Positions 43,833 to 43,895 of a DNA stretch of 64,000 nucleotides are shown here, piece by piece (position 1 is the first letter of the stretch; each line of letters begins with the position of its first letter). The position numbers were made by a program, and so were the translations under genes. This DNA is from Octopus vulgaris. Lineage: Eukaryota. The notes under the pieces were generated by a model, which had not been told where the DNA came from, did no database searches, and saw nothing but the letters and a program-made list of their open reading frames with translations. The stretch is taken from positions 18,724,001 through 18,788,000 of the forward strand of contig OX597828.1 in NCBI GenBank assembly GCA_951406725.2, given 5' to 3'.

Positions 43833-43895
43833 ACCCTTCGTCAGTCGTCGGCTGTCTATCTACTCCTCATTTCGAGCATTGAACGACAATATGAG
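43833..43895 (-). ncRNA. Hammerhead-like ribozyme motif with non-canonical (pseudoknotted) strand order
   Basis: Minus strand: CUCA-U-A-UUGUCG-uucaau-GCUC-GAAA-UGAG-gaguagauagacagc-CGACGA-CUGACGA-A-GGGU. Confidence 0.6.

Follow-up and report, generated by a model that had tools for sequence, protein, structure and literature searches.

Permuted hammerheads and Penelope-like elements

The hammerhead order that begins with the cleavage site (S), continues with GAAA (G) and ends with CUGAnGA (C) has already been published as type SGC (PMC10085705). In the available part of that paper, type SGC comprises HRIMA-1 and its variants, recovered from hairpin-ribozyme-associated metatranscriptome contigs and by sequence searches; a second type, CSG, is represented by two unique soil-DNA sequences (CSG-1, CSG-2), with the host element unnamed; and octopus, molluscs and transposons go unmentioned outside the references. 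Both types cleave in vitro, and SGC requires all four helices. The known alignments, as presented in the same part of the paper, separate CUGAnGA from its neighbouring stems by no more than 1-2 inserted bases (Eckert et al. 2023, PMC10085705).

The role proposed for the hammerheads of Penelope-like elements (PLEs) is the release of unit-length RNA from tandem transcripts (PMC4209133). In a Poseidon PLE, the hammerhead required protein in order to cleave, and insertion in vitro did not depend on that cleavage (PMC11167929). The Naiads are reported, in the available part of their description, to be without canonical hammerheads; some of their consensi were flagged for core or half-core fragments, with no structure given, and the octopus Naiad consensus was flagged HHR_half_core (PMC8557442). 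Listed there as PLE traits are (TA)n targets, 5' truncation, partial tandems, inverted copies and tails.

The locus described here lies in a 64-kb stretch of the Octopus vulgaris genome, the whole of which was analyzed and is called the window. It is probably a predicted self-cleaving hammerhead in a decayed copy, lying close to the 3' end of a short repeat that is Penelope-like and non-autonomous, its four helices forming a circularly permuted SGC/CSG hammerhead with the opening between A9 and G10.1. Such an opening lies outside the six published permutations as the available account gives them. A full-text literature search, with most subscription journals outside its range, returned nothing in print about hammerheads with an opening at A9-G10.1 or about permuted Naiad hammerheads, and the passages found of a 2026 retrozyme preprint are silent on permutation and on octopus.

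The motif at 43833-43895

The motif is read on the minus strand. Its elements, numbered by window position, are as follows.

43728-43965, minus strand: copy of repeat family 1, truncated on its 5' side (the unit is non-coding, ~620 bp long, and has its 3' end fixed at a (TA)n run)
43910-43914, minus strand: predicted 5' strand of stem II, AAGCA here (family majority GAGCA); pairs with 43878-43874 and covaries across families
43903-43908, minus strand: 5' strand of helix IV, CUGUCU, counterpart of the helix that links stem I to stem II in types SGC and CSG
43891-43895, minus strand: stem III strand CUCAU, ending in U16.1, from the window sequence
43890, minus strand: H17, the A of the AUA triplet; predicted cut 43890/43889, by analogy with hammerheads
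43884-43889, minus strand: stem I strand UUGUCG, 3' of the cut site, from the window sequence
43874-43878, minus strand: predicted 3' strand of stem II, UGCUC, ending in C11.1, from cross-family pairing
43866-43873, minus strand: GAAA core box and stem III partner, GAA-AUGAG (GAAA 43873-43870, partner 43870-43866)
43852-43857, minus strand: 3' strand of helix IV, AGACAG, pairing with CUGUCU
43845-43850, minus strand: stem I partner, CGACGA (CGACAA in 37/43 copies of the family 1 alignment)
43838-43844, minus strand: CUGAnGA box (C3-A9), CUGACGA here, the last conserved element of the fold
43833-43836, minus strand: GGGU, taken for a stem II strand in an earlier note; a weaker alternative partner or a relic, not kept across families

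The earlier note, made from the same DNA, had described a permuted hammerhead at 43833-43895, and all of its segments were found in place when the window sequence was re-read. The core boxes CUGAnGA, GAAA and UH are all present in the order S, G, C, which is the order of type SGC; the circular block order of the canonical types I, II and III is absent. A descriptor covering all six hammerhead block orders (minimum stem lengths: I, 5; II, 4; III, 4) matched the 64-kb window at this site only, and 40 block-wise dinucleotide shuffles of the window gave 0 matches. Rfam reported no hammerhead at the site, none in 10 loci and none among the 150 window matches listed out of 258. Nested single-strand folding gave no stability signal (z -0.49 to 0.75). 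Both the Rfam models and nested folding are blind to the motif because they cannot represent its block order.

The window copy is ~89% identical to another family 1 copy over 227 nt. It carries three defects, namely an A in place of G10.1, one G-U pair in stem I, and a 5' end 75 nt upstream of the cut site; on account of these it is likely to be weak or dead as a predicted ribozyme. The fully paired stem I partner that the earlier note had predicted, CGACAA, is indeed the family majority, and so is the core CUGAUGA (33/43 family 1 copies). A better stem II partner, at 43914-43910, lies outside the coordinates that the note had covered.

Elsewhere in the window, a repeat at 8696-8738 of the minus strand (near 55266 by reverse-strand count), also seen in locus L160, holds a candidate type I hammerhead in canonical order. 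A perfect inverted repeat flanks a (TA)n run at 46227-46346; Rfam microRNA matches there and at other places in the window fall below the gathering score and are due to microsatellites.

Repeat families carrying the motif

A first look at the 2.8-Gb genome gave 3371 family 1 candidates, of which 40 were scored; this figure does not count copies. Across 59 loci, the repeat unit measures ~620 bp and is non-coding. Its 3' end is fixed at (TA)n, ~150-165 nt past the cut site, and the motif lies near it. The 5' ends are variable (-74 to -459), partial tandems and a 50-nt tail occur, and 13 of the 59 loci hold copies in both orientations. Four copies are identical to the one at L020 over the 77-nt fold. 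Family 1 shows the marks of a non-autonomous PLE: fixed 3' end, 5' truncation, tandems, inverted copies, tail and microsatellite target. It is placed with the PLEs because its fixed 3' end, truncation, tandems, orientation and tails match the pattern in PMC8557442.

The Penelope link suggested by the earlier note stands as far as this insertion pattern and the same layout behind the Naiad RT (see below) are concerned; it does not extend to a coding sequence, since family 1 itself is joined to no ORF in the loci examined. An autonomous parent with RT and GIY-YIG domains, to which the note had proposed tracing the family, was not found: in the loci examined, no family 1 copy is joined to an ORF with N-terminal GIY-YIG, CxC, DKA and RT. 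The features that define the Naiad clade are found for the sister motif behind the Naiad RT and not for family 1. In 20 extended Naiad RT loci, only the Naiad's own motif was present, apart from one family 1 copy 2.6 kb away on the opposite strand; the family 6 matches in these loci are Naiad UTR contained in the query. A GIY-YIG search for the driver returned mostly C-terminal-endonuclease PLEs with a 781-aa ORF, and these were rejected, their pLTR motif being a different one, type I-like and degenerate. Locus L228 (17-340 and 5590-5890) holds a PLE that is young and keeps its RT-GIY-YIG ORF (781 aa) intact, with a further frame upstream and tandem 3' repeats; at the end of its pLTR stands a type I-like hammerhead with UUGAUAA as first box.

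Two further families are represented in the window.

4147-4573, minus strand: copy of family 2, sharing the four-helix layout; its motif spans about 4285-4366
61902-61963, plus strand: copy of family 6 whose truncation falls upstream of stem III; the predicted upstream stem II strand is present in other copies

Family 2 has no stem II after CUGAnGA (0-1 bp). Among 29 copies, one stem III pair is U-A in 15 and A-U in 9, and the family's covariation score was reached by 0/500 shuffles. The earlier note had likened the present site to the motif at 4285-4350; the block order is indeed the same, and the GGGU-type stem II is absent there. In the truncated family 6 copy at 61907, GGCAC stands before GAAA, which predicts GUGCC upstream; this was found in the majority line of 20 copies, and no downstream stem II partner was found in that line. 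Stems I and III covary between families, which bears out the note's view of a permuted, pseudoknotted hammerhead common to several repeat families.

Family 3 forms young (98-100% identity), non-coding tandem arrays with units of 832-844 bp (L091-L120, e.g. L110:1120-1950). These retrozyme-like arrays carry the same opened hammerhead, and the Naiad ORFs here are broken. Parts of the unit are covered by contigs of four sequencing runs, which show neither ends nor strand; none of the runs with family 3 is listed as RNA. Family 5 (L088:954-1026, one copy seen) is another opened hammerhead with different stems. Forty random 10-kb stretches gave 1 S-G-C match, of the family 3 type, and 10.2 Mb of shuffled loci gave 1 match. 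Sequences resembling a splice donor (GTAAG, close to the start of the unit) and splice acceptors (pyrimidine-AG) were noticed at L024:1160-1340 and at L110:1140 and 1668; in family 3, an acceptor-like pyrimidine-AG site stands immediately 5' of the strand with which the ribozyme begins. Retention of introns is known in PLEs.

The same layout behind the Naiad reverse transcriptase

The octopus Naiad consensus ends in the opened motif, and the genome holds both the 3' and the 5' motifs of that consensus. The G-to-C part of the genome's Naiad-type motif has 493 exact matches (control, 0). The motif lies 3' of the Naiad RT on the same strand in 8/30 loci, some of which overlap, and one deleted copy has it linked to the N-terminal endonuclease. 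Within the genome's Naiad, a CUGAAGA in the 5' region (L273:2880-2960) runs directly into GAGCAACU, in a hairpin and without a GAAA box; the similarity of GAGCAACU to the upstream stem II strand of family 1 is close and may be due to chance.

A Naiad endonuclease fragment of the genome led to 13 proteins, 12 of which were aligned (N-terminal GIY-YIG, RT), and the alignment led to 89 Naiad-related loci, 80 from metagenomes and 9 from genome collections. No Naiad relatives were found in viral contigs. The Naiad-like ORFs in prokaryote genome assemblies (L355-L363) are likely eukaryotic contamination; such contamination is noted by Craig et al. in the available part of PMC8557442.

When the 89 loci were scanned with a descriptor blind to stem II, the S-G-C layout was found in 8, all on the coding strand; 7 of these lie in 3' tails, and the remaining one precedes the ORF. 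In all 8, the upstream strand forms a Watson-Crick stem II of 4-6 bp that begins with G-C, compared to 0-3 bp downstream, and the helix IV counterparts in the Naiad loci are 8-12 bp. Shuffled tails gave 0.06 matches per set against the 7 real ones; an upstream helix of at least 5 bp was present in 1/12 chance matches and in 6/7 real matches. Ten of 81 Naiad-related 3' tails of at least 100 nt (51 tails reach at least 500 nt) hold any such motif: 7 are opened, 2 are identical CSG hammerheads, and 1 is a CSG with an insert.

Matches in the published Naiad consensus file were listed for four heptamers (60/62, 23/23, 25/25 and 30/43), those spanning line ends being missed. By eye, at least 10 of the 54 entries fit the opened form among the matches listed (two octopus, three Acropora and five identified by file position only), one of them with a stem II mismatch and one with a 2-bp stem I. 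At least 6 of 54, likewise by eye and among the matches listed, have the layout of contiguous type CSG (three with Nippostrongylus in the header, three placed among nematodes by file position). Several other consensus matches (supplement parts 16-19) fit neither layout by eye. An entry at a ctenophore position has helices II, III and IV and a stem I of 2 bp.

Behind one Naiad-related RT (L351:3592-3678; L352 is identical) lies a contiguous type CSG hammerhead with a 13-bp helix IV. In another Naiad-related tail (L345:2901-3013), the type CSG hammerhead has a stem III of 3 bp, and two hairpins (27 nt) separate A9 from G10.1. A quick RT tree of 93 of 97 rows shows the opened form in two distant parts, and L351 is grouped with the opened L339 and L348 in one branch (SH-aLRT 99); the four rows dropped had fewer than 170 aligned residues and included the intended outgroup, so the tree is midpoint-rooted and gives no order of events. 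Gap 0, gap 27 and open in related Naiads likely represent a series. The opened form and CSG would be connected by insertion, or by tandem duplication and loss, with no direction implied. We lean towards a Naiad lineage of non-circularly permuted hammerheads that spans CSG, the insert form and an opened active ribozyme, the last of these with thousands of copies in animal genomes that standard searches miss.

Conservation of the fold and choice of the stem II strand

The fold was compared across 13 families/elements, one of the near-identical pair L339/L348 being excluded. The core boxes were demanded by the search, so their conservation carries no weight. Two core-flanking pairs are informative: G10.1-C11.1 and A15.1-U16.1 are kept in 13/13 while the stem sequences turn over fully, and C11.1 was not required by the search. 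This retention argues against a fold that is correct but has lost self-cutting and would either signal binding or packaging to the PLE protein or depend on protein in order to cut. We consider such a loss unlikely, the nearest contiguous forms being able to cleave without protein according to the available part of PMC10085705. Its appeal lies in the interrupted catalytic core, in the many Naiad-related loci that lack the motif, in the low activity of metazoan PLE hammerheads (PMC4209133), and in the protein dependence and dispensability of the Poseidon hammerhead in vitro (PMC11167929).

Stem II decides between the opened fold and an ordinary type SGC. The earlier note had paired GGGU with GCUC (4 bp, two of them G-U), which is possible on paper and is probably wrong. 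The upstream strand, 19-44 nt 5' of the cut site in the 13 families/elements, is Watson-Crick at positions 1-5 in 13, 13, 13, 13 and 12 of them; the downstream strand, with one extra base, is so in 4, 3, 3, 2 and 0. Positions 2-5 of the upstream stem show 3-4 Watson-Crick types each, and there is no covariation in the downstream register. The upstream strand was selected for matching best within 70 nt, a choice that in part builds in its perfect pairing, so the weight rests on the shuffle controls, which for upstream stem II in single cases give p values of 0.001 to 0.26. Downstream pairing amounts to 0-2 bp in 11 of 14 examples and 3 bp in one; 4 bp, with G-U pairs, are reached in families 1 and 3 only.

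In family 1, stem II is GAGCA/UGCUC, with the first G in 39/43 copies, and helix IV is CUGUCU/AGACAG. The upstream model pairs 95.3% of cells versus 94.8% for the downstream model, and the covariation score was reached by 32/500 and 283/500 shuffles, respectively. Family 1 copies alone do not separate the two models, as would be expected for copies decaying after insertion. Across families, stems I, II and III covary, and helix IV directly follows the upstream stem II strand. A possible kink-turn between stem III and helix IV (3-nt bulge, then tandem G-A pairs) fits by eye in family 2 and in the genome's Naiad; by the same comparison it is irregular in families 1 and 3 and not evident in 7 metagenome examples.

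An ordinary type SGC would form stem II with GGGU after one extra A, leaving the upstream strand as a competing or regulatory helix. The type itself has been validated (PMC10085705, available part), PLE hammerheads commonly leave one base unpaired where stem II starts on its 5' side (PMC4209133), and the pairing in families 1 and 3 would accommodate it. The block order is that of SGC and the joining helix is present (helix IV, 4-12 bp); CUGAnGA is not contiguous with a stem II strand (0-2 extra bases). Given the short downstream pairing in most examples, family 2 included, the lack of covariation in that register, and a helix IV that makes sense only right after the upstream strand, this reading is quite improbable. 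Chance pairing in an AT-rich repeat with no ribozyme, for which the missing Rfam match and folding-energy signal might be cited, is very improbable (the earlier note had called chance unlikely), given the empty window shuffles, the single match in shuffled loci, and a recurrence specific to strand and place with full covariation.

Predicted fold and role

The core boxes, the covariation of helices I-III, helix IV, the PLE-type insertion and the layout behind the Naiad RT are read from the sequences themselves. In the opened fold, the first half would run, 5' to 3', through the stem II strand, the helix IV strand, the stem III strand, the cut site, the stem I strand and a short linker; the second half would continue with the stem II partner, GAAA, the stem III partner, the helix IV partner, the stem I partner and CUGAnGA. 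Helix IV would tie stems I and II to each other at their far ends, as the joining helix of SGC and CSG does, and so hold them side by side. The core would assemble without a covalent A9-G10.1 link, leaving the A9 end free. The RNA would be cut after H17, trimming unit-length RNA from tandem or read-through transcripts, and family 1 would be moved in trans by a PLE protein. By analogy with the known alignments, in which at most 1-2 bases are inserted there, the break at A9/G10.1 may cost activity. That the elements need the ribozyme is doubtful, since few Naiad tails hold the motif and the Poseidon hammerhead is dispensable in vitro.

If the fold is correct and active, a catalytic core would be built without the covalent A9-G10.1 link, a topology beyond the six permutations thought possible. 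Several consequences would follow: i) the assumption behind the six-permutation list, that CUGAnGA runs straight into stem II (PMC10085705, available part), would be broken; ii) the Naiad puzzle of missing canonical hammerheads and yet unexplained core fragments that are kept (PMC8557442, available part) would have a testable answer; iii) the rare type CSG would be given a likely natural home in Naiad 3' regions; iv) gap 0, gap 27 and open would be natural intermediates for the rewiring of a ribozyme; and v) hammerhead counts in animal genomes would overlook a large class.

Relation to known hammerheads and elements

The opened form corresponds to type SGC with a joining helix, circularly permuted so that the ends lie between A9 and G10.1; compared to SGC, the stem II 5' strand and one strand of the joining helix are placed at the 5' end. 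Type CSG and the opened form have the same strand order around the circle and the same four helices, but CSG has a contiguous CUGAnGA-stem II block, which the opened form lacks. The layout at L351 is that of CSG-1 as Eckert et al. give it in the available part of PMC10085705.

At the level of the element, (TA)n targets, 5' truncation, tandems, inverted copies and tails are common to family 1 and the Naiads as described in the available part of PMC8557442. Unlike Naiads, family 1 is non-coding, with no linked Naiad ORF in the loci examined. The known hammerheads of PLE-derived, often tandem, non-coding repeats likewise lie near the repeat end, and the tandem arrays of family 3 may be compared with them. 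Those hammerheads are of type I in circular order, have a weak stem III and are thought to act as dimers, whereas the opened form, with a stem III of 4-6 bp and at least 2 pseudoknots, is predicted to be able to fold as a monomer.
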